Virus record (IMG/VR): IMGVR_UViG_3300047321_000298
Span: 160,001-224,000 of that record
Origin: a virus
Taxonomy: Duplodnaviria; Caudoviricetes
Direction: 5' to 3' (one strand)
Length of the DNA: 64,000 nt
Position 1 is the first letter of the stretch. Every line of letters starts with the position of its first letter. The notes under the pieces were generated by a model that had not been told where the DNA came from, ran no database searches, and worked only from the letters and a program-made list of their open reading frames with translations. Made by a program: the position numbers and the translations under genes. Positions 3,083-63,333 of this stretch are shown here, piece after piece.

Positions 3083-3112
3083 TTGACGTGCTGTTGACGT
3101 TTTGTGTATGAT
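3083..3112 (+). promoter_or_regulatory. sigma70-like promoter containing the repeated 15-bp element
   Basis: TTGACG (3083)-N18-TATGAT (3107); element ttgacgttttgtgta at 3094-3108. Confidence 0.6.
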
Positions 3113-3144
3113 GAACACATAAACTAAACAACAAGGGGTTCGAA

Positions 3145-3225
3145 ATGAACGCAACGTTTCCTGGTTTCATTGGGGCCTGTGCTGTTGGGGCAATTCTGGC
3201 AATCATGATTGCAGCCAGCATGTAA
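3145..3225 (+). CDS. 26-aa hydrophobic peptide
   Basis: RBS aagggg; MNATFPGFIGACAVGAILAIMIAASM directly after the promoter. Confidence 0.5.
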   Translation: MNATFPGFIGACAVGAILAIMIAASM

Positions 3226-3264
3226 GGGTTTTAAAATCCGGGCTTCCGTTTTTGAAGTTTTGAA

Positions 3265-3351
3265 ATGAGCGACGATCTACACTACGCGTGCGGCATGTTG
3301 TTTCTTTGCGCGCTGCTGGCCGCCCTATTGACCGTGCCCGATTTACTCTAA
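3265..3351 (+). CDS. 28-aa hydrophobic peptide
   Basis: MSDDLHYACGMLFLCALLAALLTVPDLL; ends 6 nt before the next gene. Confidence 0.45.
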   Translation: MSDDLHYACGMLFLCALLAALLTVPDLL

Positions 3352-3357
3352 TCCAAA

Positions 3358-3819
3358 ATGAAAGAGTCAAAAGCTACAGTTGACCGGTGGATGGCTGAGA
3401 AAGCCGCCTCAGGTTTCCAGTTTATGTTTGTTGTGTGCGATACGTTCGACTATCAACAGTATCCGGTTGGCGTCAAAGCTTCCGAGTTTTGGAGCATGCA
3501 CGAGCGCTATCACGGGATGGACATGCAGCGCATCGAGGGATACTACGACTTGTCCACGAAACAGACGCTCATCAACTTTCCGCCAAAGGTCGAGCCGGAA
3601 GCGTACATGTTGACTCTGCTGAAGGCCCGACCGACCCATACGACGTTCACTGTCCATATGGACTATCAGCGCCGGAAACTGACCGAAATCGACACGACTG
3701 AGCGTCAGGCGCTGGAACAGGTGCGCGAGGCGCTGCTTGATCCACAAAACCCGCACGTTGCAAGTCGCGCAAACAACGCACTGAACATCATCGACAAGGT
3801 AATAGGCGAGCCAAAATGA
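3358..3819 (+). CDS. hypothetical protein
   Basis: ORF track; ATGA coupling to the next gene. Confidence 0.7.
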   Translation: MKESKATVDRWMAEKAASGFQFMFVVCDTFDYQQYPVGVKASEFWSMHERYHGMDMQRIEGYYDLSTKQTLINFPPKVEPEAYMLTLLKARPTHTTFTVHMDYQRRKLTEIDTTERQALEQVREALLDPQNPHVASRANNALNIIDKVIGEPK

Positions 3820-4289
3820 GCGATAACCTGATGACCAAGACGGAAATCATGAAGTTGATCGCAGCGGGTCGAATTCATGAATCGTTCGTGCACTCGATTG
3901 AAGGCACGTTCGACATCACGGAGATGCGAGCACGCGCGTCTGGGTCGCAGGTAGTCACCGTGCCGATCCAGTCGGTATTGCCGTTCGTCCTCGAAAATCG
4001 GGTGTTCGAACTGGATCGGGTGTTCGAACTGGACGACAACAGTTGGAAGAACGACCCCGCGATGTGCGTCGTTTTTGACCGGGCCGAAGTCGTTGAGCAC
4101 CTGCTGGTGGATGGCGTTCACCGGATCATGCGCCGGTACCACGAGGGGTTAGAAGACTTCGAATGCTACTTCGTGGCCGAAAGAGACATCGTTCGGCCGG
4201 ACATGTCCAAGTGGCAGGACGGTACCGAACGCGGCTTAGACTGGGGTACCGAAATCGTGGTTGACGGCAAGATCGTAAAGCGTAGTTAA
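3816..4289 (+). CDS. hypothetical protein, possible ParB/Srx-like N-terminal fold
   Basis: LLVDGVHRIMRR resembles the ParB/sulfiredoxin DGxHR motif. Confidence 0.5.
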   Translation: MSDNLMTKTEIMKLIAAGRIHESFVHSIEGTFDITEMRARASGSQVVTVPIQSVLPFVLENRVFELDRVFELDDNSWKNDPAMCVVFDRAEVVEHLLVDGVHRIMRRYHEGLEDFECYFVAERDIVRPDMSKWQDGTERGLDWGTEIVVDGKIVKRS

Positions 4290-4309
4290 AACAACTATTC
4301 GGGGAATCT

Positions 4310-4621
4310 ATGAAATATCTGGTCGCTGGTTTGCTTAGTGCGGTGGCGTTCGCCATCTCTTTTTTCTTTCAGGCCGCAATGTGGGTCCGGCTGTACGCGG
4401 GACTCGAACCGCCGATCTTCTTCTTTGTTCTCCTGTCCGTTGTGGTCGGCGCGTTCTTTTTCTTGGGGTACGCCGTCGCTGACTGTACGTCTGGCCGCAC
4501 CCCGGTCAAAGACGAAGCCGACGAGTGGAAGCCCGTGCGGAGGTCGATTGATGAGCACGGAGCGGAATTCGTGAGCGCTCAGGAGATTCGCTTTCGCATG
4601 AAAAAGAGGTACCCAAGTTGA
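4310..4621 (+). CDS. membrane protein (2 predicted TM segments)
   Basis: Two hydrophobic stretches in the N-terminal 55 aa. Confidence 0.65.
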   Translation: MKYLVAGLLSAVAFAISFFFQAAMWVRLYAGLEPPIFFFVLLSVVVGAFFFLGYAVADCTSGRTPVKDEADEWKPVRRSIDEHGAEFVSAQEIRFRMKKRYPS

Positions 4622-4902
4622 TGGACCCGCGTTTGAAAGAGGGTGACGCCTATCAAATTCGAAGGTATGACCGGGACAACACGGTAACCCCCGGTTGGGG
4701 AGAGTGGGAGACTGTGACGCGTCAGAAGTATGACGATGTTTGCGCCTACATAGAGATGGGTTACCTGTTTTACCAGGCTCGATCACTGACCTGTAGTCAC
4801 GCCGTGTGCCACAAGCTTTCGCCACCTGACGACTGTCCGGGCACGCAAGAAGTAGGAATTGCAAAAGAATTTCGGGGAAATCCATTCGCCTTCCGTAAAT
4901 AA
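4621..4902 (+). CDS. hypothetical protein
   Basis: ATG overlaps the upstream stop. Confidence 0.6.
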   Translation: MDPRLKEGDAYQIRRYDRDNTVTPGWGEWETVTRQKYDDVCAYIEMGYLFYQARSLTCSHAVCHKLSPPDDCPGTQEVGIAKEFRGNPFAFRK

Positions 4903-4951
4903 GCTGATGTAGGGGCCAGACCGAGTCCCTCACATCAACAAGGAGCGGAAG

Positions 4952-6682: not shown

Positions 6683-6755
6683 AGGCGAAAGCTGAGTTAA
6701 TGCTCGTGGGCCCCGTAATTCGGGGCTCTCTGCACGTTACCACCTGAAAAATAAA

Positions 6756-7280: not shown

Positions 7281-7503
7281 CGCGTTCGACAAATTCACAG
7301 AACTGTATAAGTCCGATCCGTCAGCACCGCATCTGCGCTTAGGTCAGTTCTTCTGCAATCTGTACATACGCGAATCGTGGCCCGAACTCTACTACGAAGC
7401 AGATGATTCGAAGGCCGCCGCGCTGATCTGTGATTGGCTGGAGCGTCACCAGTACACCGACAGTCTGCCGAAGCCCCAAAACCGCATCCAACTTCCGCAC
7501 TGA
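7273..7503 (+). CDS. hypothetical protein
   Basis: Coupled ORF; HLRLGQFFCN motif. Confidence 0.6.
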   Translation: MTNAFDKFTELYKSDPSAPHLRLGQFFCNLYIRESWPELYYEADDSKAAALICDWLERHQYTDSLPKPQNRIQLPH

Positions 7504-7511
7504 GCCCAACT

Positions 7512-7928: not shown

Positions 7929-7931
7929 CCT

Positions 7932-8753: not shown

Positions 8754-8835
8754 CGCCCGCCATTAAATCCTGGACGCTGAAGTAAATAGGTTGTGTAGGA
8801 CACGCCTACTAACCCAAACTTCACACAGGACCAAA

Positions 8836-9702: not shown

Positions 9703-9708
9703 GATGCC

Positions 9709-9951: not shown

Positions 9952-9956
9952 AAACG

Positions 9957-9983: not shown

Positions 9984-11674
9984 CTTCATTCTGTTGTTGA
10001 CGCTTTGTGCAGCACGTGTACAATAGATTCTGTTGGATGTGAAACGAACCAGGAGCTAGAAATGACCAAGATCGATCAGTTGGAAGCGCAAGTTCGCGAG
10101 ACGTTCGCTTTGGGTCACGAGCGTGCGTATGTCGAAGCCGGTATCTACAAGTTCTACATGCCCAACACGATCTTGGCTTTACAGAAGCGCGGCTACAAGG
10201 TTGAAAGTCCGAAGGTTGGTGTTTATTACGTCTACCCGAAAGGTGCTTAAATGTCCGTGATCCAAGCCCAAGAAGAATTCATTGCTCAGGTCAACGCGTG
10301 TGTGCGGCCGGGTGACAGGCAACACCGAGTGAAACGCTCAGCTAACCGGAAGCTCGCTGACTATCTGAATGCGGTGGGCTACACCGCAGAACAGATCAGG
10401 CAAGCGCAGATCGACGCGTGGGATGTGGCAGAACTTGAGAATAGAGCGGACTGATCAATGGCTTCCGATGACGAAGAAATGATTTGCAGTATCTGCAGCA
10501 AGCCGATCCTGGATGGAGAAGGCCGGTACACCGCTGGCGAGCACAGGGGCATATTCCGGCACTGGGACTGCTACAAGCCCGATCTGGACAAGATTGACCG
10601 GCTAATGAAGGAGTTGAAGTCCGACATCGACAGCTTGGGGCCCATAAAGAAACGCAGGAGCCCCTGCCGCCCCGGGGATGGACCCACGGCCAAGCGTCTC
10701 GGTCTGAAGATCGTGAAGGCTCTTAAACGCCAGCTTGACCTGGATGTGACCATCGATCATCTGGATTTCTGGGTTCAGCCTCCAACATACCGTGGTCCCC
10801 GATGGGACCTAGCAATATGGGGCTGCACAGTTGAGCACCCGGATATTGTGGGTGGCAGGCTCATGCTTCATTCGTGGGAGCCCATGACCAAACTCGCGAA
10901 GCAGGAGACGGTGACGTTATTCCCCGAAGGCGTTCTAACTTTCGACGTTGGCTAAGTTTTTTGTTGACGGTTTGTGCGCGACGTGTACAATGGGTTCTGT
11001 AGTGAGTGATCTGAAACGAAACGGGGAACGAAATGGACTACGCAGCTAACCTTGCTCTCTTCCTTCAAGAAAAGACCGGAACGATTTTCGGTGAATGGGA
11101 TGGGCGGATGACCGCAGCAGAGCAGCGTGCGTTGTTCGGTCGCTTTCTCGGAAAGGGATTGCTCTGTATCAACGGTTTGACTGAAGTGGTGGAACACCAT
11201 GTCAAGGTCTGTTTTGGAACGGACAGCGATTGCACCGCACGTGTCGCCTGGCGCGATCTGAAGTAAAAAGGATAAATGATGAGCAGCCTTCTTAAAACAG
11301 CAAGCTGGGTCATTCGCAACATCGAGACTCAGGAAGTCGTGATGGAGACGTTCAACGAAAACCTCGTGGCGAAATTGAACGTCGCGAAGTACGAAGCTGT
11401 GCCGATCCTCGAATATCTTCAAAGCCTCAACCGGAGCTAAAAACATGTTCGGAAAATCGATTTCGCGTCACGCCTACTCGCTGGATAAGCGAGATGCCAA
11501 GATGGCTGCGTGTCGTGGGTTGCTTAACCGCGCACGAATCTCGCGGAACCACGTGGAGATCACCCGGTTGACGCGCGAACTGAAACTTCTTGGTCAAAGT
11601 ATTTGTTGACGTTCTGTGCACGACCTGTATAATGGGTCTTGTTGGATGTGACTCGAAACGAACCGGAGAACGAG

Positions 11675-12169: not shown

Positions 12170-12174
12170 ACAAC

Positions 12175-12198: not shown

Positions 12199-14525
12199 CG
12201 CTTCTGTGTTGACGTTTTGTGCTGTCTCTGTATAGTAAATCCTGTAAACGCAAAAAGAACTGAGGACAACATCATGCCTAGCAGTAAATATGAATTGGAC
12301 CCGTCACTCACGTTCGAGCAGGCACAGGAAATCGCGGACAAGCTACAAGCGGCCTGGAGCGCTGCGGGCAACGCCCTGAGCGCTTTTGTCGATGCTCAGG
12401 GTCCACGGGGTCCCATGAATCTGACGCCGGATAGCGTACGGCTGATGCCTCAATATCGGACGCTTCAAAGCGAACTCCAAAGTGCACGTGTTCGAGCGCA
12501 ACGTTTCGGTGCGTTGTACACGCGGAAGTTCAAGAAAGAAATCCGCGATTCCGTGATGGCACGTCGGAAAGCGATGATGAAAGCGAACCAGGAAAACGAA
12601 AGTGAACAATCTTAACGGCGATGACCAGGCGCAAACGAAAGACGCATGGCCCATGCTGAAGCCGCTGCACTTGGAGGCTCTTATGTTTGCGTACAACGAG
12701 GGCTACTCAAAAGCGTTCGATGGGCGAATGTTCCCGAACCCGTTTGTGGAGTCTGGTTCGCAGGCTGCAGCATGGGCTCTTGGCACACGTGACGGCACAG
12801 AGGCGCGCAATAAGTCGCAGGCTCAGGCAGACATGCTTCCCGAATTGCGACTGTATGCGTTTGCTCTGGCGACATCAGTTACGAGCAACAAGCATGCGAC
12901 TACGGCCATGAAAAAGCTGGCTGACTCCATGCTGAAACTTTTGAACAAGTGAGAGGAAATTATGGGCGTTCGGACAACAGCGGATGAGAAAGTTGAATCG
13001 GCACTCGAAAACATCAACAACGCGATCCAATCCCTGTCTGACATCGTGGTCAACCAGTGTTGGGGTCACGATTCGTGGAACGTAGAGTACCGCGCAAAAC
13101 TGGAAGAGTCGTTCCTGTCGCTGATGGAAATTCGAAAAAAGCTTGAGGGTTGTTGACGTTTTGTGCGGCGCTCTGTACAATCGTTCCTGTAGTGATTCGA
13201 GACGAACCAGGAGAACGAAATGTTGGCACTGAGCGCGTGTGAATACCGGAAGGCAAGCAAAACTCTCGTTGTTTCTTCTGCTCTGGTTGGTCCCGGTTTT
13301 CCTCGCAAGATCGAAGTGAAGAGCCACCACACTGGCTCGGTAGTCGAGTTCGAAGTTGACGTTGAAGCGGGTATCGCTGCTGAATTCTGGGATGGTGAGA
13401 TGTGCGAGTATGTTCCGGTCGAACCGGTACCCAACGTCGTCAAGCTCGTTGTCTCCAACTTCTGCTGAGAAAAATCATGTACCTCGTTCAAGTGACCTAT
13501 TGGGAAACGGTGAATGGGACTCGTGCTTGGGTGAACGAGCACGAACTTCAGGTTGTGGATCAACAGCAGTTGGATGTCGAAATCGACGTAGAGAACGTTA
13601 GTCTTCGGATGAAGAACGCGGGCTACGATGAGGTTGTGATTTCGTGCGCCGGTCTGGATTTTTTCCGAACACTCAAATAACAGAACATGACCATTTTTAA
13701 AGATTTCGCCGTGCTCGCTGATTTGAAAAAGCAGTATGAAGATCAGCAGGCACGAATCGACGCGTTGGTTGATGCGCAGGAGCAATTGAGCCTCCGCATT
13801 CGTAGGGCTTCGCGGGTTAAAGAAGTAACGAAAGATGGGATAGCCCTGGACACGACCGTAGCTTTTCTGAAACGCGAGGGCGGTTACGCATCCACGGTTC
13901 CGCTGCACGACGAAGACGGACGCCGGACCGTTGACGTTTACCAGAAGCGGGGCGCACACCACAAAGGGTGGGCAGTTAAGGTCAACTCGTTCGGAGGCTT
14001 CAAAGAGGAATTCTACGGCGGTAAAGTTTTAGGTCTGGACGCAGCGTGGAGTAAATCGAAGGCCGCGCGTGTAGCTATTGCGTGGCTAACGTTTGGAAAA
14101 ATCCTGGAGGATCAAGCGAATGACGTTGCAACAACCTAAAGACAAGCCCCATAAAGTCTTCGAGAAAATACGTTTGTCAAAAGCATTGTCGTCTATTCAG
14201 CTACGCGCTGAGCGGGCACTAGCCCGGTATCAGGATGACGGTATCGACCTGAGCCCCACGGATATGGTGCTTCTGAAACAGATTATCCATGCGGATGATC
14301 TGGATGAAGTGCATCTGATCTGCGCTGAGCGCTTGGGTCACGACGACGAAGCGAAGAAGCTGCGCACGTGTATTTCAGGTAAGGCTGAGCGTGGGGACGG
14401 AAGGGCGATAGGTATCGTCCTGTAGTCCAAGCGTTCAATTTCATGATTGAAAATCTAACAGGGTATTCAACCAGAATCTGAACCGTTCAGGTGTCTGGGT
14501 TTGTGAACTTCAGGATGAGTAAATC

Positions 14526-16079: not shown

Positions 16080-16082
16080 TCT

Positions 16083-44516: not shown

Positions 44517-44581
44517 TCACTTGCACAATACGTCAATAGGAGTAAGATGCTTCTGTTGACGTATTCATTGCGGAGAAGAAC

Positions 44582-47687: not shown

Positions 47688-47975
47688 GTGATGACCTTGA
47701 CTGTTACTGCTGAGTTTGATGCCTGGCTCCTTCGGGTGCGGGATCGGCAAGCGGCGATGGCTGTGGTCGGTCGGCTCAACAGGGCACGGGCAGGAAACCT
47801 CGGTTTGTGGAGGGGTGTTGGTGGTGGCGTGGCTGAAATGAAGATCGACATCGGCCAAGGCTACCGGGTTTATTTCGTGCAACGTGGCGAACAGGTTTTC
47901 GTGCTTTGCGGTGGCAACAAGGCTACCCAGGCAGCAGACATTCGGCGGGCGCAAGTGCTCGCGCGTGAGGTGTGA
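47688..47975 (+). CDS. addiction-module killer protein (HigB/RelE-like, HI1419 type)
   Basis: FDAWL..VRD...RLNRARAGNLG...GVAEMKIDIGQGYRVYF...LCGGNKATQAADI. Confidence 0.88.
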   Translation: MMTLTVTAEFDAWLLRVRDRQAAMAVVGRLNRARAGNLGLWRGVGGGVAEMKIDIGQGYRVYFVQRGEQVFVLCGGNKATQAADIRRAQVLAREV

Positions 47976-47982
47976 GGTGGAG

Positions 47983-48249
47983 ATGATGGAATTCGACGCT
48001 GCTAGATACTTGAATGACGACAACGATTGCCGTCTCTACCTCAATCAAGCTTTGGAGAACGGTGATCCACTCGAAATTCAAACGGCACTCGCGGATATTG
48101 CGCGGGCACAATGCACCAAGGCAAACATTGACAGCGCGGTGCAGCAGGCGCTCGCTCAGGGCGCTGCAGACTTCGCGACCGTCATAGCCGTGATCAACGC
48201 ATTAGGCATGCGACTCACGGCCCAAGAGAATCCGAGCAAGCAAGAATAG
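47983..48249 (+). CDS. addiction-module antidote (HI1420 type) with apparently degenerate HTH
   Basis: FDAARYL...YLNQALENGD...ALADIARA...FATVIAVINALG. Confidence 0.8.
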   Translation: MMEFDAARYLNDDNDCRLYLNQALENGDPLEIQTALADIARAQCTKANIDSAVQQALAQGAADFATVIAVINALGMRLTAQENPSKQE

Positions 48250-51200: not shown

Positions 51201-53479
51201 CATCATGCCAACGGCGCACCAAAGAGAGATGATTCAGCGCTGCATTCGTTCGGGTATCCCGATGGCGGAAAAGTTCGAGTACCCCGACGGTGTCAAAACC
51301 AGTGTTGGATACATGGCGCTCACCTACGAGAAGCGCGGCAACTACCACTACCTCAACGGCAAGCGTGTCGCCCGCAATTTCGTGCTCGATGCAGGGCACC
51401 AAGGTTTGGTAGGCGATTGAATACACGTTTCGCCCACACGGAAAAGGACATGATCACATGACGACCGACAAAGAGGCTCTGTTCAACTACCAGCTACTGG
51501 GCCGATTACAGCAGGACTGTGAGTACTATCTAGGTCACGGTAACCGAGCGAAAAAGCACCTTTGGGCCGGTGATGAAGCTGAGCAAATCGCAAAAATGAA
51601 AGAAATTTACGAAGGGCTGAGCGAGAAACCGGAGTGGATTTCGCTTGAGAAAATTGCCGAGTACGAAGCGGCAATGACTGCGAGTCAGTAGCCCCTTGGT
51701 GCAAGTCAGCAGCGACGACTGGGCTGGTGGTAGCAGAAGGGGTCTAAGGCCCCTTTTCTTCTGTTTATGTTGACGCTTTGTGCACAGGTCCGTATAATCG
51801 TTCTTGTGGTTGAGACTTTCCTGGAGAACGCGATGGACCGTTTCGTTGTGTTGGTTTTCGTTGGTGCTAGCGCTACCGTGATCGATGGCGAGCCGCTGAT
51901 CTGCGACGGCTGCAGCGATGAGGTAGAACTCGAAAACTGGGCTGTTGAGAAGTTCGCTAACGGCCGGGAAGTCTTCAACGTGGTTTGCGTTGCTAGCGAG
52001 CGGAACGCAATGGCGTACATCGCGCGGTTTGGCTACGAGTTTGTTGCGGAGTGAAAAATCATGGCACGTAAAGAGCCCCTGATGGTGCAGGTTAGCAGCA
52101 ACGGTCAGGTGATCGGCAAGCTGACGACTCAAGAATTCATGGACTACGCGAAGAAGAACTTCGGCATCGGTAGCCAACGTTTCCTGGGCGACTACGTGAA
52201 GTGTTTCAACGAGGGCAAGGCACGGATAGGTGAGCCGGAACGCGTTGAACTGATCCTCAACAAGTGAGCAGGTTCGGAGAACGAAGTGATCAAGCGTCCT
52301 GTTGGCGTTAGAAAGGCTCCTGAGCCGATCATGTGGTCGGTTGAGCATTTCGGCTACTTCCCGCCTGAGTATGGCCGTGAGGTGGCGGTGTTCTGGGACC
52401 AAGCTGCGGCCTATGCGTGCAGCGAAGAGCGCAACAAGTTTAACTACTGCACAGACGTTCAGGTCTATGCGTATGCGGATGAATAGCGGACGTGTGTCGC
52501 GCTAACGATGATGAAAAAGGAAAGGGTGGGCGATGGCACTAAAGGACGGCAATTATCTAGCCACGTGCAAGGAGAGGAACCCGTTGGCCGCTGCGGTGAA
52601 CGGGCACCACCGCGTGTGGCCTAATGCTACGTGTGTGGTCAAGAGAGGATTCGCGAGATTCAAGCGCGACGGTGACGAAGTCTGGAGTTGCAACGCGACT
52701 TACGCGGAAGCGCACTTCAAGCTCGAACCACTCGACTGATTTACTGTTGACGTTTTGTGCGTCGTTCTGTACAATGGGTTCTGTGGTGATCAGAAACGGA
52801 CTGGAGAACGAGATGGCACTGACGGCAACTCAAACGACTGGCGGGAGGGCTCTTCCTCAGTTCGTGCTTGAAATCCTGGCAACGAGATTTTCCCCGGCTG
52901 AAATCAGCATCATTGATCAGAACTGGAACCGATACAGCCAGATGTCTTTCAGCAATTCGTGTGCAGACGAATTCCTTCTCCAGGGCGACCTCATACTGAT
53001 GCTTGAAAGGACTTGATCATGGCAAGGAACTGGTTCATGAGTGGGTGCGATAAGTTCGGCAACCCCGAGGGTCAACGGCAGAACATCACTGAGGTGGTGC
53101 TCGATACCGCTGGTGAAGAAGTTTTTGATGCGAACAGCGGTGAGCAGGAGATGGCTGCTCAGGCACTGGTCGAAAGCGCGTACGGCACGACCGCTGGCTA
53201 CTGCAACGGCACCTACTGGACCGAGTGAGAAACTATGACAGCGACTATTATTTTCCGGAACGGACAAGGCGGATTTGTTGAGGCGTTCGAGGCAATTCGC
53301 CTTGGCTACGACTACGACGGCTATAACCTGTACGCTGGTGGCATCCGCCGTAACCCCATCGAAGTGGTGGAATGCACGGCTGTTGATGTAGCTGAGTCGT
53401 CCATTGACGGTGTGAGTTTCTTCCGTACAGAGACCGGCCGTGTGTACAAGACAATCCAGTGAGTGGTGACAGAGCCAAG

Positions 53480-53510: not shown

Positions 53511-53516
53511 GGTGAC

Positions 53517-53699
53517 CTACTGCGTTGCGTGCCAGTCAGCCGCTGTCAGTGACGGGCTCTCACCCGCGTCGAATTCACGGCGGAACCAATCCTCGTTGTC
53601 GTAGGGAACGTGCTTGGCTTCAAGCATGTCAATACCAAGCTTGGTCAGTTCGTGTGACACGGCCGATGCCCAATCATCAAAAGTGCGGTGTGCCGCCAT
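53517..53699 (-). CDS. hypothetical protein
   Basis: RBS ggag; last gene of the leftward block. Confidence 0.55.
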   Translation of the reverse strand: MAAHRTFDDWASAVSHELTKLGIDMLEAKHVPYDNEDWFRREFDAGESPSLTAADWHATQ

Positions 53700-53715
53700 A
53701 CGGGAGTCCTCCGGT

Positions 53716-54039
53716 CTATCGGTCTTGGCGAGTGTCCCAGACGCGCAAAAGAGCTATCGCAGTCGGTTCCTCAGAGTACGGGGGTAGAACTTCATAGTGC
53801 AATTCATAGCGCCCCGCCAGACATACCCAGCGATGAACTTCGCGTGCGGGAGGTCCATCGTAGCCGTCAAGCTCTTCACCGAGTCGGTGGAAGTGATCTT
53901 GTCCAAGCCGATCTGCTTCATCGAGTAGAGCATTGACGATACGTCGGGCCGCTGCTCCATCGTTGAATTTTTTCACGTGGTCAGCGATCAGCGCCAGGTC
54001 GGACATGGCTTTAGAAGTAGGTAGGACCTTGACCTTCAC
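53716..54039 (-). CDS. ParE/RelE-family toxin
   Basis: VLPTSKAMSDLALIADH...AARRIVNAL...GRYELHY...LLRVWDTRQD. Confidence 0.85.
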   Translation of the reverse strand: MKVKVLPTSKAMSDLALIADHVKKFNDGAAARRIVNALLDEADRLGQDHFHRLGEELDGYDGPPAREVHRWVCLAGRYELHYEVLPPYSEEPTAIALLRVWDTRQDR

Positions 54040-54305
54040 GCTTCGGGCACCGGCTGTTCGTTATCGGTTCCAATGCTGTCGGCCCAGACGCGTGCCTGAT
54101 CCATCGGGACGAATCGGCCCGCAGTCACATCGTCCAGTCCTTCCTGAATCAATCGACGCTTCTCCGCTTCTCGTGAGAGAAACTGGACCAGCGCTTTCTT
54201 GACGATCCACTGACGCGGCCGGTCAAGCAGCGCGGAGAGGGCGTCCACTTCCTGCGCTAGTTCGACCGGCACCTGAGCCGTGAGGGTTCGAGTTTCAGCA
54301 GTCAC
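54036..54305 (-). CDS. CopG/RHH antitoxin
   Basis: TLTAQVPVELAQEVDALSALLDRPRQWIVKKAL; GTGA overlap with the toxin. Confidence 0.85.
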   Translation of the reverse strand: MTAETRTLTAQVPVELAQEVDALSALLDRPRQWIVKKALVQFLSREAEKRRLIQEGLDDVTAGRFVPMDQARVWADSIGTDNEQPVPEA

Positions 54306-54335
54306 AGGGGCCTCCTATTGAAAACTAACTGAGTC

Positions 54336-54365
54336 TATTGTAAATCAATAAACCCGTCACTTCAA
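54336..54365 (-). promoter_or_regulatory. TA operon promoter with palindromic operator
   Basis: Minus strand TTGAAG-N17-TACAAT; TATTG-N5-CAATA at 54336-54350 overlaps the -10. Confidence 0.6.
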
Positions 54366-54390
54366 GGAGACGCCACACGGATTTGAGGGC

Positions 54391-54984
54391 TCAGGCTGCG
54401 CTCTGTTGGCACGAACTGAGTTCCGCCTCCAGGGTTAAGAGTCGTTTTGATCGAGCTTTGAGCCGCTTAACGGGCGTCCCGAAATACATACCCCAAGGAT
54501 CGAGAGACTTCGTCACCAACGACATCGCACCAACGGACGATCCTTCACCGATCCGACAGCCAGGCAGGATGACAGTGCCCGATCCGACAATGACGTGTCG
54601 TCCAAGTCGGACCGGCGCAACCTTCACATTCAAATACTGACGAGGTACGGTCGGGTTCGTGAGCGCCGCGCCAGAGTAATCGTCCGACACGCTATAGACA
54701 CGCACACCCTGAGACAATCCACAGAAGTCCTCCAGTTCGATGCCTCCACCACCGGCCATAAAGCACATACCTCCGATGTGCACGTATGAGCCGATGCGTA
54801 TATGCCCGCTCGAAGCAGACAGGACACTGGGTCCGTCGATACGCACGTTACTCCCGAACGTCATGTTTTCGATGCCGACGACCGTACAGTTTTTCGCGAC
54901 CCTAACGTTGCTGCCCACGGAGGGCGAGCCGAACTGTTTCAATTCTTCTTCGGTCCAGTAGCCTGGATTGAGCGGGTTTTGCAT
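54391..54984 (-). CDS. hexapeptide-repeat (LbH) sugar acyltransferase, VioB/galactoside acetyltransferase-like
   Basis: Repeated [LIV]-G-x4 hexapeptides; SDDYSGAALTNPTVP; VGAMSLVTKSLDPWGMYFGTP. Confidence 0.88.
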   Translation of the reverse strand: MQNPLNPGYWTEEELKQFGSPSVGSNVRVAKNCTVVGIENMTFGSNVRIDGPSVLSASSGHIRIGSYVHIGGMCFMAGGGGIELEDFCGLSQGVRVYSVSDDYSGAALTNPTVPRQYLNVKVAPVRLGRHVIVGSGTVILPGCRIGEGSSVGAMSLVTKSLDPWGMYFGTPVKRLKARSKRLLTLEAELSSCQQSAA

Positions 54985-55109
54985 GTGAGTCCCTCGCGCG
55001 CCGGGGCGAGCTAAAAAGTGGATTTGCCTTCAGGCCGCCCGCAAACGACGACCCGATGCATCGCCTATACTAGCCAGTGAGGCGAGGAACGGTTTTCGCA
55101 AACAAAAGC

Positions 55110-55148
55110 AAAAAGCCGCGCCAATTCGATGCTTTGAATGAGCGCGGC
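55110..55148 (-). terminator. intrinsic terminator (minus strand)
   Basis: gccgcgc...gcgcggc stem with an A-run on its left side. Confidence 0.55.
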
Positions 55149-55197
55149 AAGTCAGTGTTCGGCAAAACAGGCGGTACGGCTATTCAGCACTTAACGG

Positions 55198-57365
55198 CTA
55201 CTCGCTCTCAAGTCGCGAGATTTCCTCATCCACTGTGGGTGGCGTAGGCAGACCGAGTTTTTTGCGTTCAGCGTCCACTGTCGGTCCGGTTCTTTCGTAG
55301 CCACCCAGCTTGATTTTGTGGCGCACAGCGCGCCCGTCAGGGAGCCACCCGTTGAACGCCCAATCGCTGCCATTGATGCGCCCATGCTTGCACAGGAATT
55401 CGTGCACCGCGAAAACGAGCTTCTCAAGCTCACGACTTTCACTTTCCGTGAAGCTGTCGAACATTGATGACTCCCTCAGATTTGACATAAATCTAATTAT
55501 CAACAATTGAACGAGCGTTCACTTTTCTGTCAAGGACCTGGCGCAGCAGCGGCCGGAAGCGTTGCTGTTCGCTTCACAATCTCGCCGTCCCGATACTCGA
55601 ACCCGTTTTCATCCATCCACGTCTGCGCAGCCTGAATGATCGCGTCGTCCAACATGAGTCTCTCGACCTCGTTGGCGGAAAGGCGAACGCCGGTTCCTCG
55701 AAGGCCAGCGCGATAGATGCGCGCGTGCGGATTGTCCTTTATCTCTTCCATTGCTATCCCTGTCGTATGTCTGTCAGGGTCAATGCTCGCAAACGATCAT
55801 CGTCGTCGTATGGCGACCCGTCCGTCAGCGCGCGCCATGAGATATAGACGCCATGAGCCATGCACCGCAGGACGTGTGCGCGTTCACCCTCAGCGGTTTC
55901 CGACGCCTGCTGCATCAACCTCTTAATTTGTGTTTCCGCATTCCGGGTAATCTGCTGGTGTGTCCAGCGCGTTGGATTGCTCATCGCGTGTTAGCCGATT
56001 CCCCGGCTGGCGTCCAACGCGGAGCCAACTGATCTTCGATGCGGGGGCGCTCTGTGAATCCAAGCCGAACCAAAAACTCGCGAACCTGTTCTTCGGTCTC
56101 GAACGGCCTAAAGTGTTGGGTGCCTGCGCTAAACCCCGGCTGGCAAATTTCGACCACAGGATAAGTACCAGACATCGCTTTGCGGCCGAACCGAAAAACT
56201 GCACCGGGTGCCGCGCGCTTGCCAACCTCGTCATTCATCGCGATCATCCAGCCGTCGATGGGTTCTGCGATAACCTTGGGACTGTCTTCCATTCGTTAGT
56301 TCTCCACAATGTCGATGACTGGTTGATTAGAGTTTACCGCCGACAGGTGAATCGAGGATGGCGTTGATGTTTTCGATATCGCCAAGGCCCGACAACTTGA
56401 TCAGCTTGGTGAGGTTTTGATACGAGACACTGATCGTCTGAGCTTCAACATCAATCTCGTTTTCGGCCACGATGTCTAGCACCAGTTCCTGCAGATCGGT
56501 TCTTCGCGGTGTGCTCACGTTAAGTCCTCATCAATGTAAATATCTGGCTTCTGCGTTTCGCCCGCAGCCGCCTGTTATTTCTTTTTGCCGTGCAGAATGA
56601 AAATACCGGGCGCTAGGTGCGTGATGTCCGGATCGGCCGGACCCTTTGCATAGCAGTGACCCGTTTGCGTGTCGAAGATAGCCCACCGCCGACCGCTCGA
56701 ATACGCGTCTTTCCAGCGAAGCGCCGAATCGTAGTCCGTGAAAGTGTCCAAGCTGTCCAGGCATTCACCCGTACTCTCGTAAATCTTGACCTCGTAACCC
56801 ATAACCGCCCCACTCCTAACTGTTCTGTACATCGTCTAGCGCTTGGACCGCATCGCTGAGGTCCGTCAGGTCCTCAATCTCATCGAGCGCTACGATTGCT
56901 GTATCGAGACTATCAACCGCAGCTTCCGCTGTCTCCCCTCGCTGCCCTGCCCTCAAACTTTCCGGCATGTTATCGAGTGCTTCCTGCTCTTCATCTCGCA
57001 CCGCTTCGAGTGTGGTTCGGATACTTTCGCCCTCCGCTTTCAGTTCTTCGATCAGCACCTTCAACGCTTCAAGACGCGAACGCTGCGTCTGGATGATTTT
57101 TCGTCTAGTGCCGTTCATAGGATTAGAGTTGAGCGCGTCCGGAATCCGTCAAGCGCACGGCTCTATACATGAGCCCCTGCCCTTTGGCGATAAAACAGCT
57201 AGGCGCGCTTGACTGCACCTCTTCGTCGCTCACGAGTTCAGCGAGCCCCTTCGCCATGAGCGCATCGAGCGCCGATCCGTAGCACTCTCCATACGGGCTG
57301 AATGGTGCCTCTCCTAGCCACTGTAGCAACCGGCGTTCTGTGCTGTTCAGTTCGATCTGTGTCAT
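55198..57365 (-). other. leftward run of small hypothetical genes
   Basis: CDS 55198-55464, 55530-55751, 55754-55984, 55981-56292, 56327-56518, 56575-56832 (start uncertain), 56816-57118, 57123-57365. Confidence 0.7.
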
Positions 57366-57606
57366 CCGGCCTCCGCTTATGCACAGGGTTGTGCACCGAA
57401 ATTGTGGACAACCTCCATCCCCTCTGCAAGCCGATTTTCTCTGCATTTGTGTGCGCGGTCGCGGGGCAGACAGTTAGTTGTGTTTTGCGGCAGTCGCCGA
57501 AAATTTCCCCAGCGCCCTGCCCTCCCCTACCGTCGATCCTTCATCCTAGTTCTAGCTTTCTCCCGCAAACCCAGGCTGGATAAGGCTTACCCAGGGAAAA
57601 GTTAAC

Positions 57607-57679
57607 TTGCAGAAGATGAGTTAACCGTATACATTCCGACCAATTCGCCATTTTACGGAAGTTGCAGCGAAAAATGGCG
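57607..57679 (+). promoter_or_regulatory. putative parAB promoter with operator-like repeats
   Basis: TTGCAG-N17-TACATT; GTTAAC at 57601 and 57620; inverted repeat CGCCATTTT/AAAATGGCG at 57646-57679. Confidence 0.45.
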
Positions 57680-57724
57680 ACCACTTCAGTAAATAACCAC
57701 ACTGCCAATGAAGGGGAGTCCAAG

Positions 57725-58945
57725 ATGCTCGTTGCCAAACCAATCGTATCTATCGAACACTCTGTCAAGCACACTCCGAACCGTGTGGCCCTAGACGACA
57801 TTGAGTTCATCGCACAGAACGCGAGCGAGATGCTGATGAATGTGCGTGAGAGCATGCTTGCTCCGCATCCGCGAAAACACGCGCCTGTGTTCACAACCTC
57901 ACAACTCGCGTCGCTCTGCCAGGTGGATCGCAAGAAGATCAACTATTACTGGGAGAAGCCTGAACTCGGCCTGCCCCAAGGCACAGTGCTGCCGCGTACG
58001 CGCGAATTCACGCTGGTCGAAGCGCGCGAATGGGTCAAGAAAGTTGGCCCGTACCTGAAGCGGCCGGACGGTGTTAAGGGCAAAAAGATTGCAATCGGAA
58101 ACTTCAAAGGGGGCGTCTCCAAAACTACAACAGCGATGACTCTGGCTCAGGGCCTGTCGCTGCGCGGTCGGCGCGTGCTGATAATTGATCTTGATCCGCA
58201 AGCATCGCTCACCGCGTTGAACGGAATCTTGGCTGACAGCGAAGTCAATGAAGACCAAACGATTCTGCCACTCATTTACGGTGAAGCGGACTCGCTCGAA
58301 TACGCGATCCAGCCGACGTACTGGGATGGTATCGACCTCATTGCGGGCAGTCAGTCTTTGTTCAGCGCTGAATTTTACCTTCCCTTCAAGCAGTCACGCG
58401 AACGCGAATTTCGTTTTTGGGAAGTGCTGGAAAAGGGCTTGGAACCTCTGCTCGATCAGTACGACATGATCATCATCGACACGCCCCCTGCCCTCTCCTA
58501 CGTTACGATCAACGCGTTCATGGCCGCAGACGGCCTGATTGTTCCGACTCCGCCGAACGCACTGGACTACGCATCGTCCACGCAGTTCTGGTCGCTGTTC
58601 ACGGACTTCGCACGGAGCATGAAACAGATCGTGCCGGACCTGAACAAGCACTTCGATTTCATCCACGTCCTGCTCGCTAAAGTCGATCAATCGCAGGCAG
58701 CAACGTTCGCCGTGCGCGAGTGGATTAACCGCACGTACGAGCGTCATGTGCTGCCGGTTGAGATTCCCACGACGACCGTGACATCGAGCGCATCGACCGA
58801 GTTCGGGACCGTCTACGATATCTCGAAGTACGACGGCAGCAATAAAACCTACCAGCGGGCGCGTGAAGCATACGACCGATTTGCAGAGATGATCGACCAG
58901 GAGATTTTCGCGCTGTGGACCTCTGAACTGGAGGTCGCAGCATGA
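57725..58945 (+). CDS. parA: type Ia plasmid partition ATPase
   Basis: N-terminal HTH extension; KGGVSKTT deviant Walker A, DLDPQASL, DTPP; RBS ggggag before ATG 57725 (ORF is open from 57662). Confidence 0.95.
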   Translation: MLVAKPIVSIEHSVKHTPNRVALDDIEFIAQNASEMLMNVRESMLAPHPRKHAPVFTTSQLASLCQVDRKKINYYWEKPELGLPQGTVLPRTREFTLVEAREWVKKVGPYLKRPDGVKGKKIAIGNFKGGVSKTTTAMTLAQGLSLRGRRVLIIDLDPQASLTALNGILADSEVNEDQTILPLIYGEADSLEYAIQPTYWDGIDLIAGSQSLFSAEFYLPFKQSREREFRFWEVLEKGLEPLLDQYDMIIIDTPPALSYVTINAFMAADGLIVPTPPNALDYASSTQFWSLFTDFARSMKQIVPDLNKHFDFIHVLLAKVDQSQAATFAVREWINRTYERHVLPVEIPTTTVTSSASTEFGTVYDISKYDGSNKTYQRAREAYDRFAEMIDQEIFALWTSELEVAA

Positions 58946-59973
58946 GCATTAAGGAGAAAATGGCGGCCCGAACTGCGGCGATTGCAAGCCCCAGCGGTAA
59001 CCGGCCAGTCGAACCGCTAGCTCGCCCGAAAACTGGTCCAGGTCAGTTTCTGGCCGCAATGCCGATCCTTGCAGAGAAAGAGGAAGAACTGGAAAAGGCG
59101 AACGCTGAGAATGCAAGTTTGCGCGAGCAACTTGAGCAGGCGTTGGCGAATGGAAATCCATTGGGCTCCGCCGTTGAGGTTCCGCTCGATCAACTTCATG
59201 AGGTCCCTGGGCGTCGGCGCTACATGCCCCGCGAAAAGTACATCGAACTTCGCGACAACCTGAAAACCACCGATTTGATTCATGCGGTGGTCGTCCTGCC
59301 ACGTGAATCAGGTGGCTACGAAATCTGGTCCGGACACCATCGGGTGGACGCGTATCGCGAGCTTGGCCGCACCACGATCATGTGCGTCATGGGCAAGGCT
59401 GAAAAGGCTTCTGTCAGCGCCGGGGCGTTCTACGCAAACCTGATGCAGTCGGACCTGACCGATTTCGAAAAGTACCAGGGCTTCAAACGAATTCAGGAAG
59501 AAAACCCGGGCATCACGCAAGCGCAGATGGCGGAGCGTGCGGGCGTAGCAACTTCCGTCCTTTCCCGGTTGATGTCATTTGAGCAGCTACCGGAACCAGT
59601 CCTGCAGATGCTGAACGAGCGCCCTGCTTTGCTTGGTGCGACCTCTGGCAGCGCACTCTCCGGACTGGCCGCAGAGGGGAAAGCAGAACGTGTAATTGAA
59701 GCTGTGCAGAAACTGGCGAAGGGCGAAATTGACCAGACACAGGCCGTGAAGCTGGCGAGCACGGAACCGGCAAAGCCCAAAGAAACGAAGAAGGCAGAGC
59801 GGGTAAAAGTTCGCGTTGGCAAAGCCGTGTATTGCAGTATGAGCACGGCACGCAACGTTGTGCGGATGGAATTTCAATCGGAAGAGGAAGCCGCAGCAGC
59901 TAGGGAAGGGCTAACGGCATTTCTGGAAGCACGGGCCGAAGAATTACGGGCGCAGGCACAGGACGAAAAGTGA
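58942..59973 (+). CDS. parB: ParB partition protein
   Basis: SGHHR (GxxR CTP-binding motif), HTH TQAQMAERAGVATSVLSRLM; ATGA coupling to parA. Confidence 0.93.
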   Translation: MSIKEKMAARTAAIASPSGNRPVEPLARPKTGPGQFLAAMPILAEKEEELEKANAENASLREQLEQALANGNPLGSAVEVPLDQLHEVPGRRRYMPREKYIELRDNLKTTDLIHAVVVLPRESGGYEIWSGHHRVDAYRELGRTTIMCVMGKAEKASVSAGAFYANLMQSDLTDFEKYQGFKRIQEENPGITQAQMAERAGVATSVLSRLMSFEQLPEPVLQMLNERPALLGATSGSALSGLAAEGKAERVIEAVQKLAKGEIDQTQAVKLASTEPAKPKETKKAERVKVRVGKAVYCSMSTARNVVRMEFQSEEEAAAAREGLTAFLEARAEELRAQAQDEK

Positions 59974-60007
59974 AAGTCCTTTTGAATCAAGGACTTCCAA
60001 GTTGGAA
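59974..60007. promoter_or_regulatory. candidate parS-like palindromes
   Basis: AAGTCCTT-N7-AAGGACTT (59974-59996) overlapping TTCCAAGTTGGAA (59995-60007) directly after parB. Confidence 0.4.
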
Positions 60008-60050
60008 CTTCTGAGGAACACGCAATGAACTGATTCTGAGGCGGGAAAAG

Positions 60051-60082
60051 AAAAAGCCCTCGGCTGGAACCGAAGGCTTTTT
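60051..60082. terminator. hairpin/terminator upstream of repA
   Basis: aaaaagcc...ggcttttt. Confidence 0.6.
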
Positions 60083-60228
60083 GCATAAAAGGGCTCGGCT
60101 GGAAATCCGTTCCCCGCACTACACTCACCGACTGGAAATCGGCAAGGACCTCAACAATCCCGAGTGTAGCGGAACGAGATTGACAGTCAAGTGAATTCAG
60201 CCATTTTCTGAAAAATGGACTGCACAGC

Positions 60229-61461
60229 ATGTCAATCGCGCAACACTCCGTTGCTGGCGAGGGTGAAGCTCGCCCCCAGCAGTCAGTACCCGCCGAAGTC
60301 TCAAACGATGCAGCCGCCCTTGCCGCGTTTCGCTGCGATTCGATCAACCTTCCGTGGGTTATCTTTCGCGCTGCATTCCGCGCAAACCAGATCGAACAAC
60401 TGCCAGCACGCGCACGTTCTGTTCTCGCTGCCCTAGCCCGTACAGTTGACGCTAATCGCCCGTTCGCTGCGATCTTTGCCCGCCGTGAGTTATTGACCGG
60501 CCGCGCAATGCAATCGATGCGCACGTTCTATCGCAGCCTGGACGACCTAGAAGCCGCAGAACTCATCGAACGTCGTCCGCAATCCCGCTACGTTGAAGTC
60601 GGTCGATTCGGCCGTGCGAATTTGCATCTCACAGAGCGCGCAGTGGTTCTTCTTGGATTGGTTGAGGTGCAGGCCGAGCAACTCCCTACAGCGCCCGCAG
60701 AAACGGCTCAGACGCCCTCACATGCCGTCCGGATGCAGACCGCAGAACCCAGCGTTTCTTCGTTTATCCGCCCGACTGCCAACGTGGCAGACGGTGCTAT
60801 ATATGGTGATCTTTACCCTGCTTCTTCTCAAAAGAGACAACCGGGGCAACTGCCTGCGGACCTCCAACGTCTGCGGTCCCTGGGTTTCATTGATTTCCTG
60901 ATTTTCAAACTCATGAAGGAAGCGCGAGAGAATCGCAAACGGCTCTCCGACGTTGTTGAAGCTACGTGGGAACATCTGAAGGCTGCGAAGCGACCGATCA
61001 ACTATCTGCGTGCGCTGCTTCGTAGCCCTGTCGATTTCGCTCATCAATTGCGAAGCAAGGCCGAAGCTCGACACGCGGCACAACGTCAAGTCGAACGCGC
61101 AGCGAACGCGGAACTCATTGCACAACGGTGTGCAGGACAGACGTTTATCGACACTGACGGCCAGCGCAAGTACGTGCTCGATACGGACGGCCAGTCCATG
61201 ACGGTGTACGTTCGTGGCGAAGGGGTGGGGCGGCAGGCTGCAGGCTGGAAGGAGCAGTTCGCAGAGGCGCTTGAGAAGGGACGCATTCGTCGTGCTGCGC
61301 TCGATAACTTGGAGGCGTTTGGTCCGGCACCCACACAGACAGCGAGAGCGTCAGCAGGGGAGGGCCACACCGCGAACGTAAAGCCACCGGTTACCGCTCA
61401 AGTCCGTAGCCACATCGCTGGATTGCGTGCCATTCTTCGCACACAGCGGAGTATTATGTAA
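60229..61461 (+). CDS. repA: plasmid/chromid-type replication initiator (wHTH)
   Basis: LPARARSVLAALARTVD...SMRTFYRSLDDLEAAELIERRPQ wHTH; follows parAB as in Burkholderiaceae secondary replicons. Confidence 0.8.
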   Translation: MSIAQHSVAGEGEARPQQSVPAEVSNDAAALAAFRCDSINLPWVIFRAAFRANQIEQLPARARSVLAALARTVDANRPFAAIFARRELLTGRAMQSMRTFYRSLDDLEAAELIERRPQSRYVEVGRFGRANLHLTERAVVLLGLVEVQAEQLPTAPAETAQTPSHAVRMQTAEPSVSSFIRPTANVADGAIYGDLYPASSQKRQPGQLPADLQRLRSLGFIDFLIFKLMKEARENRKRLSDVVEATWEHLKAAKRPINYLRALLRSPVDFAHQLRSKAEARHAAQRQVERAANAELIAQRCAGQTFIDTDGQRKYVLDTDGQSMTVYVRGEGVGRQAAGWKEQFAEALEKGRIRRAALDNLEAFGPAPTQTARASAGEGHTANVKPPVTAQVRSHIAGLRAILRTQRSIM

Positions 61462-61520
61462 GGAGTACATACTACATTAGACGAACGCTGCGCTTGGGTG
61501 TCGTGTTGATGGTTTGCGAT

Positions 61521-61609
61521 TCCGTGAAACACTTCGGAACCTAGCTGAAAACGGGCAAACGTTTGGCTATTCAGCGACTTGGCGCTAGGTCCTCAGTTTG
61601 TTTCACGGA
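61521..61609. repeat. long bulged inverted repeat downstream of repA
   Basis: tccgtgaaaca/tgtttcacgga, acctagc/gctaggt, gctgaa/ttcagc around central caaacgtttg. Confidence 0.65.
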
Positions 61610-61755
61610 TTTGTCAGGAAATCCCTACGCGGATCGAGCAAAACGGCTCGTTTTCTGGCCTAGCGCACGCGGCGCACAGCATTCGCTGGAAACTGTAGTG
61701 AATGCTACGTATTTTGTAATGACGAAATTCTTGGCCACCACTCGCGGAAAACGTA

Positions 61756-61783
61756 TTGACGTTTTGTGCAGACGGCGTAAAAT
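61756..61783 (+). promoter_or_regulatory. sigma70 promoter with the 15-bp element
   Basis: TTGACGTTTTGTGCA; TTGACG-N16-TAAAAT. Confidence 0.8.
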
Positions 61784-61821
61784 CGGGTTTGTCGGATGTG
61801 AACGAACCGGAGCAAGAATAA

Positions 61822-62685
61822 ATGGCCTCAAACGAAAAGGTGTACTTCATCGAAACCGATGACCTAGCGAAGCTGGATCGTCTAGCCGACCGGATGATGG
61901 GCGGCACTGATCAGGAACGCGATTTCGGTCACACGCTCTGGTACGTCCTGGACCGGGTACGCAAGAACGAGCTTGACGCGAGCGTGTTGAAGTAACGCGG
62001 CACCGGCAGTCTCTATAACTATGTGGAGTGCATCATGTGTGTAGCTCAAATCAGCAGCGCCCAAGACGAACTGATGGCCCTGATCCGCAAAGCTCAGTCG
62101 CGCGGCCTGAACGTAGTGAATATCGAATTCGAGGAAAGGGCTCTGGCGGAAGAGGGCGCGTTCATCATCGACACCGTGCAGGTTGCAAGCAAAGGTTTCG
62201 GACCGTATCCGCTTGGACATATCGCGGCACGAGAGCGTATTGCCGAATGGCTGTGGAAGCAGTCGCCCGCGTACAAGGCTCCGTCCTTCCTCGGTCGTAT
62301 CTGATGGACGAGCCGACTTTCGATGTACCTCTGACGGAGGGCGAAATCATCATAATCCGCGAAGCCCTTCGCAAGTTTCCGCGTTCGCACGAAATGGCAA
62401 CCCTGTACGACGCAGAGATTCTGAGCGCGGACCGCAAGATGACTGAGTTGCTGGCAGCTTCATTCGATCAGCATATGGGTCTCAAACCATGACCAAACTG
62501 ATCGGGGGCTGACGATGGACGCCTTCGAGCGCCAGCAGCGAGCATACGAGCAGGGAGAGAGGGCGTATCACGCGGACAAGCCGCGCGAGAAGAATCCGAA
62601 GCGTGGAGAACTTGAGCGCGAGGCTTGGTTTGCGGGTTATGACCGCGCAAAAGAACTGGACGAGTCGAACGACTTCGACGCTTGA
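61822..62685 (+). other. small hypothetical genes
   Basis: CDS 61822-61995, 62023-62304, 62304-62492, 62515-62685. Confidence 0.65.
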
Positions 62686-62707
62686 TTAACAAACCCAAAC
62701 GGAAATT

Positions 62708-63304
62708 ATGGAAAGTAAAACAATTGTGCTAGACGGTGACGGGGTGGTGTTCGATTACCGCAAGGCGTACCCAGGAGTCTGGAAAGCTGCCTTCGGCACC
62801 GACATCATTATGGTGGAACCGAATGCCTACCACGCGCATACGGCGCACGGTGTCCAGTTCGAGAGCGCGGAGCAGGAAGCGCAATTCTTCGAACACTTTG
62901 GTGAAGACGCGTGGGCAACGATGCCGCTTATGGATGGTGCTGACGAGGCGTGTTCGCTGCTCGTCGGCTGTGGCTACAAGCTCGTGATCGTCTCGTCAAT
63001 GAATCCGAAATTCGAAGCCGCGCGTTTGAGCAACTGCAAGCTGCATGGCCTGCCCATCTCTGAGGTCTACGCAGTGAAGCGGGCAGGGGAGGGCAATCCA
63101 AAGTTGCAGGTGCTGCACGATCTGCAGCCGGTCGCTCTGGTTGACGATCTGGTGGACAACTTCGAGGGGCTGAACCAGTCGATTCACTCAGCGTTCATCA
63201 ACTACCAACGCTTCGACTGTCCTAGCATCGGTCGCACGTTGCTGTCAGATAGCGTGCACGGATCGCTTCTGGAGTTCGCGAAGTTCTGGACCTATCCGAA
63301 GTAG
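62708..63304 (+). CDS. HAD-superfamily phosphatase (5'(3')-deoxyribonucleotidase-like)
   Basis: IVLDGDGVVFDY motif I; ALVDD motif IV. Confidence 0.85.
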   Translation: MESKTIVLDGDGVVFDYRKAYPGVWKAAFGTDIIMVEPNAYHAHTAHGVQFESAEQEAQFFEHFGEDAWATMPLMDGADEACSLLVGCGYKLVIVSSMNPKFEAARLSNCKLHGLPISEVYAVKRAGEGNPKLQVLHDLQPVALVDDLVDNFEGLNQSIHSAFINYQRFDCPSIGRTLLSDSVHGSLLEFAKFWTYPK

Positions 63305-63333
63305 TTGCACAAAACGTCAACATCCCCTATACT
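63305..63333 (+). promoter_or_regulatory. sigma70 promoter with reversed 15-bp element
   Basis: TTGCAC-N17-TATACT; tgcacaaaacgtcaa (63306-63320) is the exact reverse complement of the consensus. Confidence 0.75.

Follow-up and report, generated by a model that had tools for sequence, protein, structure and literature searches.

A 15-bp element, TTGACGNTTTGTGCR, recurs between the genes of a 64,000-nucleotide stretch of viral DNA (hereafter the window; bases 160001-224000 of the complete, 245,517-bp virus record IMGVR_UViG_3300047321_000298), and its inner 13 nucleotides (nt), TGACGnTYTGTGC, are, judging from comparisons among related phages, under purifying selection. An earlier note on this DNA had proposed a repressor-operator regulon governing lysis and lysogeny; the operator reading of this asymmetric, bipartite core (TGACG, n, TYTGTGC; positions 2-14 of the 15-mer) appears well supported, being backed by selection on the core, by its use in both orientations and by off-register copies, and the link to lysis and lysogeny stays an inference. 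More tentatively, as the likeliest of the readings considered, though one that stops short of being probable, we propose that the core is a dispersed asymmetric operator in about 40 early promoters of the host sigma70 type and that a predicted repressor silences the early genes in a plasmid-prophage state; protein binding, repression and the plasmid state are all three matters that we infer. Early transcription control in this jumbo-phage group is, to our knowledge, unstudied.

The record has 54.6% G+C and ends that overlap by 127 bp. By the relationships of its proteins, the phage is a Burkholderia-type jumbo phage, namely an RSL1/Sarumanvirus-type myovirus related to BcepSauron and RSL1: its portal protein shares 61% identity with those of the Burkholderia phages BcepSauron and BcepSaruman, 53% with that of the Ralstonia phage RSL1, and 49% with those of BCSR5 and Motura, and PHROGs confirmed the head and tail genes of a myovirus (major head protein, protease, sheath, connector). 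Megablast against phages returned no match, promoters are not discussed in the Matilda preprint, and the sequencing runs containing the stretch comprise rhizosphere DNA runs only, with no RNA run listed among them.

The element and its promoter cassette

Exact copies of the 15-mer number 13 in the window and 0 in 100 shuffles, and the tolerance of a single mismatch raises the count to 17, with none expected by chance (the four inexact copies are those at 3094, 11606, 12209 and 44522). A second mismatch adds a single match, on the minus strand at 15746 within an open reading frame (ORF) of 517 amino acids (aa), which is at chance level (1.4 expected). Over the whole 245.5-kb genome, 36 copies with at most one mismatch were counted (32 forward, 4 reverse), and a backwards-read control pattern gave 0. 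The element is present at every one of the 17 coordinates listed in the earlier note (Table 1), all 17 copies are intergenic by independent gene calls, and its reported absence from 53.5-61.5 kb and from upstream of the structural genes (14.5-44 kb) is borne out.

The 15-mer comprises the -35 box together with 9 spacer nt of sigma70 promoters close to consensus (TTGACG, 16-17 nt, TAYAAT), and the cassette around it reads tTG-TTGACG-n-TYTGTGCR, 7-8 variable nt, (T)GTAYAAT, a G-TTCTGT discriminator and a leader of 35-45 nt with GAAACGAACC-like and GGAG-N-GAAATG start regions. Conservation extending into the spacer, as first noticed, is genuine and non-circular: when 22 promoters were recovered by their -10 box and discriminator alone, all 22 had the spacer element, so the association is not a site-selection artefact. 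Nevertheless, the repeated unit is larger than was initially described, spanning the -35 box, 9 nt of spacer, (T)GTAYAAT, the TTCTGT discriminator and a Shine-Dalgarno leader. An overlap with the -35 box, claimed for all copies, holds for promoter copies in register but not for the copy at 3094, which is off register and lies over a -10 box whose -35 box is 11 nt upstream.

The arrangement of TTGACG or TTGCAC, 16-17 nt and TAYAAT was found in 64 copies, and an independent scan, with 10-11 of 12 hexamer positions matched, placed the element promoters as the top-scoring sigma70-like sites of 44-64 kb. Genome-wide, almost all strong intergenic promoters of the sigma70 type have the element, the exceptions being those of the ParE pair, parA and a TetR_N-like gene. 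With spacers of 16-17 nt and a core that is not palindromic, these promoters lack the 19-20 nt spacer and palindromic site of the MerR type. The end of the element lies 43-57 nt from the start codon of a small plus-strand ORF, and the downstream genes mostly encode 50-130 aa and for the most part have no BcepSauron homologue. Several copies stand directly behind an intrinsic terminator and are therefore heads of short, separate transcription units.

A leader hairpin was considered as a feature of the whole family and rejected, as RNAalifold returned no consensus structure for 33 leaders and the named helix paired at 66.1%, versus 66.2% in shuffles. The leader of the promoter at 47634 contains CGTTTC-N11-GAAACG directly after the -10 box, with a compensatory T-to-A and A-to-T change (one pair) in the orthologue of a relative of ~69% nucleotide identity (G002); this sequence may be the operator of the Gp49/HI1420 pair itself or a hairpin.

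Conservation, orientation and register of the core

Position 7, the 7-8 nt before the -10 box and the region upstream carry almost no information across copies, which indicates that neutral positions beside the core have already been randomised among them. Comparison with a 96%-identical strain (G001) gave 0 substitutions in 182 core positions (13 positions at 14 orthologous sites), as against 5 of 28 at positions 7 and 15 of the same sites and 3-4% in the flanks. Likewise, the core is unchanged at six sites of G002, where the upstream region and leader have diverged, and it is also retained in three metagenome contigs (L187, L189 and L197; ~68-80% identity). An invariant core with diverged neighbours argues that the spacer part is under purifying selection.

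It is improbable that no separate factor is involved and that the spacer is kept by contacts with host polymerase, or by recent duplication or gene conversion. Such an account would fit the repetition of the whole cassette, leader included, the faster change of positions 7 and 15 relative to the flanks between close strains (a hint of copy-to-copy exchange) and the sporadic occurrence of the same 28-nt pattern in unrelated bacterial promoters; yet the neutral positions adjacent to an invariant core are saturated, the core is kept when flipped, and phages of the same host family do without it.

This last point draws on BcepSauron, RSL1, BCSR5 and Motura, in which copies of the element are no more numerous than those of the control pattern. 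BcepSauron shares the cassette plan in its 20-odd early promoters (TTGTTGAC as -35, TAnnAT as -10 and a leader of 40-50 nt ending in a GGGGAACGAAATG-like start region, before many small ORFs), and 19 early promoters at 1-29 kb have GGkTATTGTTGAC; however, conservation there lies upstream of the -35 box, in GGkTA, and the spacers, which are variable, G+C-rich and often short palindromes (GGGCC...GGCCC type), have no TYTGTGC core. That members of this phage group manage without the element on hosts of one and the same family argues against polymerase contact as the explanation, and the spacer element is apparently lineage-specific, being absent from related phages of that host family. A 230-kb relative (62% protein identity, 43.6% G+C) has no copy and is uninformative. 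Among viral contigs, the bare 15-mer gave mostly single chance matches, and in metagenomes the 28-nt pattern was found in ~24 contigs (L169-L205), many from gut and of ~60% G+C, with one unrelated promoter before an ORF starting MKYIF, as well as in a few singletons; all of these 28-nt matches are read as coincidence among strong promoters.

Orientation was scored on copies pooled from five records, in which 51 forward promoter copies are accompanied by 13 that are flipped in place. The flipped copies have TAnnnT on the opposite strand at an equal spacing of 16-17 nt, followed by the same discriminator and leader, and no -10 box on their own strand; in all, 13 of the 21 non-forward copies have an opposite-strand -10 box at the expected distance, and 5 of the 12 copies in contig L197 are inverted. 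The three window copies that had been listed as reversed were placed correctly but are not minus-strand promoters, as they serve plus-strand genes through TTGCAC as the -35 box. Use of the two ends differs accordingly by class: A occupies position 16 in 12 of 13 flipped copies (yielding TTGCAC as -35) versus 12 of 51 forward ones (p = 8e-6), and T occupies position 1 in 49 of 51 forward versus 8 of 13 flipped copies (p = 0.003), with positions 2-14 kept in both. Conservation in flipped and forward copies alike implies that sigma70 needs just the promoter-distal TTG hexamer, whereas some other factor needs the inner 13 nt either way. Among the results that speak against polymerase contact, this one is decisive: a separate DNA-binding protein can account for the conservation of flipped copies, and contacts of sigma region 4 or polymerase cannot. 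A flip at an orthologous promoter between lineages was also considered and set aside, since the compared genes proved to be non-orthologous.

Register is not absolute either. The copy at window 3094 lies over a -10 box, that at genome 136713 abuts one, and those at genome 148983 and 107774 are located at about +1; copies with no promoter context number only about 5 over the five records. These off-register copies fit a separable binding site, and sigma70 recognition does not account for them. The distinctive feature of the system would be an operator that nearly always provides the -35 box itself, from either end.

Possible readers of the core

In the proposed mechanism, host RNA polymerase would read the promoter-distal TTG hexamer (TTGACG forward, TTGCAC flipped) together with TAYAAT 16-17 nt on, and a sequence-specific protein would bind the core, from about -35 to -22, excluding sigma region 4. 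Occupancy by this repressor would shut off all early transcription units jointly, as one regulon, and silencing would serve maintenance as a plasmid prophage, a P1-like logic assembled from unrelated parts. Given the near-consensus hexamers and optimal spacing, no activator is needed; orientation independence, likewise, suits steric repression and not an oriented activating contact. The bipartite, non-palindromic core would, as a matter of speculation, suit a protein that binds as a monomer or with two domains, like that of L5.

Two well-characterised phages offer precedents. P1 has 22 dispersed asymmetric 17-bp C1 operators, which occur in either orientation, some of them paired, over the -35 box, spacer or -10 box of sigma70 promoters, and is maintained as a plasmid prophage (PMC8546580; P1 record annotation). 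The present phage resembles P1 in its many dispersed asymmetric sites over promoter elements and in the presence of par, rep and addiction genes, but has no C1 homologue, an unrelated operator sequence with a core of 13 nt rather than 17 bp, an operator that almost always supplies the -35 box itself in one fixed register, and the setting of a myovirus of RSL1/Sarumanvirus type, 245 kb in size, that has a T4-late-like class of promoters. The cluster A mycobacteriophage L5 has more than 20 asymmetric 13-mer sites genome-wide, bound by the monomeric two-domain repressor gp71 (PMC9283540), and the core described here is also 13 nt, asymmetric and bipartite. L5 sites, however, point the way transcription runs, do not work in the reverse orientation and in many cases lie between genes without a promoter, whereas 13 of 64 copies are flipped here, nearly all are embedded in promoters, and no gp71 homologue is present. 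The logic is thus closest to that of P1, and the phage is a member of neither the P1 nor the cluster A family because the repressor genes are absent.

T4 middle promoters, which likewise have a conserved element near -30 upstream of a sigma70 -10 box in a phage with a gp55-type late system, raise the alternative of a positive factor acting on the core, such as an activator that the phage injects or makes early, or a partner that remodels sigma, by MotA-like logic. The core lies around -28, near the place of the T4 MotA box; even so, this alternative is unlikely by a wide measure. T4 middle promoters have no -35 box, whereas the one here is near-perfect, and with both hexamers near consensus and optimally spaced, activation would be unnecessary. 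Orientation independence and off-register copies at -10 and +1 are, moreover, unlike an oriented contact. Neither the MotA C-terminal domain (PF09158) nor AsiA (PF09010) had a match in six frames, and sigma region 4 (PF04545) had none in the phage, which also counts against a reading of the core by polymerase. The only sigma signal was a weak match to region 2, at 64.8 kb, as would suit a late sigma of the gp55 kind.

We give little credence to a further alternative, that the core binds a regulator encoded by the host, through which the phage would sense the state of its host. The searches yielded no phage regulator, and the core is identical across phage lineages differing by 30%, as would be expected for a conserved host protein; on the other hand, no consensus of CRP, FNR, LexA, Fur, DnaA or sigma54 was recognised in the core, and related Burkholderia phages do not use it.

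Plasmid replicon and lifestyle

By gene content and sequence identity, the plasmid replicon of the phage is genuinely of Burkholderiaceae type, and the phage also has two toxin-antitoxin pairs. The island at window 53.5-61.5 kb encodes ParE and a partner, a hexapeptide transferase, ParA (with the size of type Ia), ParB and a Rep of plasmid type, which shares 54-60% identity with its counterparts on 112 plasmids of Burkholderia, Caballeronia, Paraburkholderia and Cupriavidus; the order parA-parB-rep-parDE is shared with a Paraburkholderia plasmid. The core is missing from the sigma70-like promoters of the island, at 54365 on the minus strand and 57607 on the plus strand. The second addiction pair, Gp49/HI1420 at 47688-48249, is under an element promoter. 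It is possible, if on balance doubtful, that a jumbo myovirus was made a plasmid prophage by capturing a Burkholderiaceae parAB-rep module, its ~40 early units being silenced by a new repressor (distinct from C1 and gp71) with a 13-nt operator, either end of which is usable as a -35 box. A core that is a repressor operator would give a one-protein handle on ~40 promoters and roughly 150 small early genes without assigned function; the phage would then also allow the idea of a temperate jumbo phage living as a plasmid to be tested, and would supply a compact, orientation-free promoter-operator module for Burkholderiaceae.

Lysogeny is plausible, and the only features that point to it are the parA-parB-rep module and the two toxin-antitoxin pairs. 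Several results weigh against the plasmid-prophage proposal. No P1 C1 homologue was detected by tblastn and phmmer against the genome and its ORFs (best E-value 0.33), nor an L5 gp71 homologue (best tblastn E-value 0.037, over 105 residues at 22% identity; none by phmmer), and Pfam and PHROGs assignments for 50 ORFs near atypical sites and in a minus-strand island included no repressor. No integrase was found in the phage. BcepSauron has no plasmid island, and G002, itself a carrier of the core, has none at the syntenic position, so that core and island are not strictly linked. The motif AGTAAATA occurs in 47 copies genome-wide, versus 4.3 expected, with 44 of the 47 co-oriented with genes and one just upstream of parA; it appears to define a second, T4-late-like promoter class, and speaks for a lytic programme like that of T4. 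A search of bacterial assemblies turned up no relative in replicon form, the major head protein matching only one 2.8-kb fragment of a metagenome-assembled genome there, and the known relatives are described as lytic, the characterised ones having been isolated as plaque-forming phages. This jumbo-phage group is regarded as strictly lytic.

The same repressor mechanism might instead have a temporal role, in which an early or middle phage protein shuts off early transcription within a purely lytic, T4-like programme and the plasmid module serves, for example, a carrier state or genome segregation. This is rather unlikely, although the co-oriented AGTAAATA class, a gp55-like sigma with region 2 only, the lack of an integrase, the presence of the core in a relative without the island at the syntenic site, and the isolation of relatives as plaque-formers all favour it; it is difficult to see why a strictly lytic phage would have a complete plasmid replicon together with two addiction modules, and no candidate shut-off protein was found. 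Even as only a temporal shut-off site, the core would be the first early-gene switch defined in this phage lineage.

The earlier note placed the regulator outside the window, but the searches detected no repressor either within it or in the rest of the genome. With regard to the repressor predicted for the plasmid-prophage state, the survey of 50 ORFs yielded only four DNA-binding leads, namely a TetR_N protein, an HTH_3 protein, the HI1420 antidote and ParB. The TetR_N-only protein (124 aa, genome 126311-126685) is encoded just upstream of the largest early-gene block, and its gene is preceded by a degenerate flipped copy and by three promoter-like repeats in tandem (the whole region being genome 126180-126685); it has no homologue in BcepSauron and no relative in viral contigs, and is regarded as a candidate regulator.

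Coordinates and atypical sites

Table 1. Element copies and associated features (window positions unless marked as genome positions; the position of the downstream gene start is given where available)
Feature	Position	Strand	Remarks
Copy, one mismatch, off register	3094-3108	+	Second TTGACG 11 nt upstream pairs with -10 TATGAT; element overlaps that -10
Forward promoter copy	9997-10011	+	-35 and spacer core; -10 TACAAT; gene start 10062
Forward promoter copy	10964-10978	+	Gene start 11033
Forward promoter copy, C at position 9	11606-11620	+	Gene start 11675
Forward promoter copy, T at position 15	12209-12223	+	Gene start 12274
Forward promoter copy	13153-13167	+	Gene start 13220
Flipped copy for plus-strand promoter	44522-44536	-	TTGCAC as -35, 16 nt, TAAGAT; gene start 44582
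Flipped copy for plus-strand promoter	46191-46205	-	TTGCAC, 16 nt, TATAAT; gene start 46255
Forward promoter copy	47097-47111	+	Gene start 47165
Forward promoter copy	47634-47648	+	Drives Gp49/HigB-like toxin (47688-47975) and HI1420-type helix-turn-helix antidote (47986-48249)
Forward promoter copy	48253-48267	+	Gene start 48319
Forward promoter copy, behind terminator	49986-50000	+	Gene start 50051
Forward promoter copy, behind terminator	50773-50787	+	Gene start 50838
Forward promoter copy, behind terminator	51770-51784	+	Gene start 51833
Forward promoter copy	52747-52761	+	Gene start 52813
Forward promoter copy, first past plasmid island	61756-61770	+	Gene start 61822
Flipped copy for plus-strand promoter	63306-63320	-	TTGCAC, 17 nt, TATACT; gene start 63363
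Element-free island	53517-61461	.	ParE toxin and partner, hexapeptide transferase, small minus-strand ORFs, parA, parB, plasmid-type rep
AGTAAATA copies	8781, 12283, 18279, 24333, 25818, 43729, 57688		
HTH_3 protein	genome 96228-96497		DNA-binding lead

Elsewhere in the genome, two flipped variant copies (CTGACGTATTGTGCA), at 107741 and 107774, stand in tandem with an offset of 33 bp (107741-107788 in all), one over the -35 box and spacer and the other over +1 of a TAGTAT promoter, and the pair precedes a 115-aa ORF with a BcepSauron homologue; a similar pairing is present at L189:3890-3945, and the ORFs around the paired site of the metagenome relative were assigned to no family. At genome 37681-37835, where the minus-strand block is interrupted by a gap of 388 bp, an orphan copy (TTGACAGTTTGTGCAA) with no -10 box adjoins several clustered DnaA-box-like sites; G001 retains this copy, which may mark an origin subject to the same control. 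Lastly, at genome 124491-124520, just upstream of a tRNA-like sequence, a one-mismatch copy with no evident -10 box occurs as the inverted repeat TTGACGTTT-N12-AAACGTCAA.

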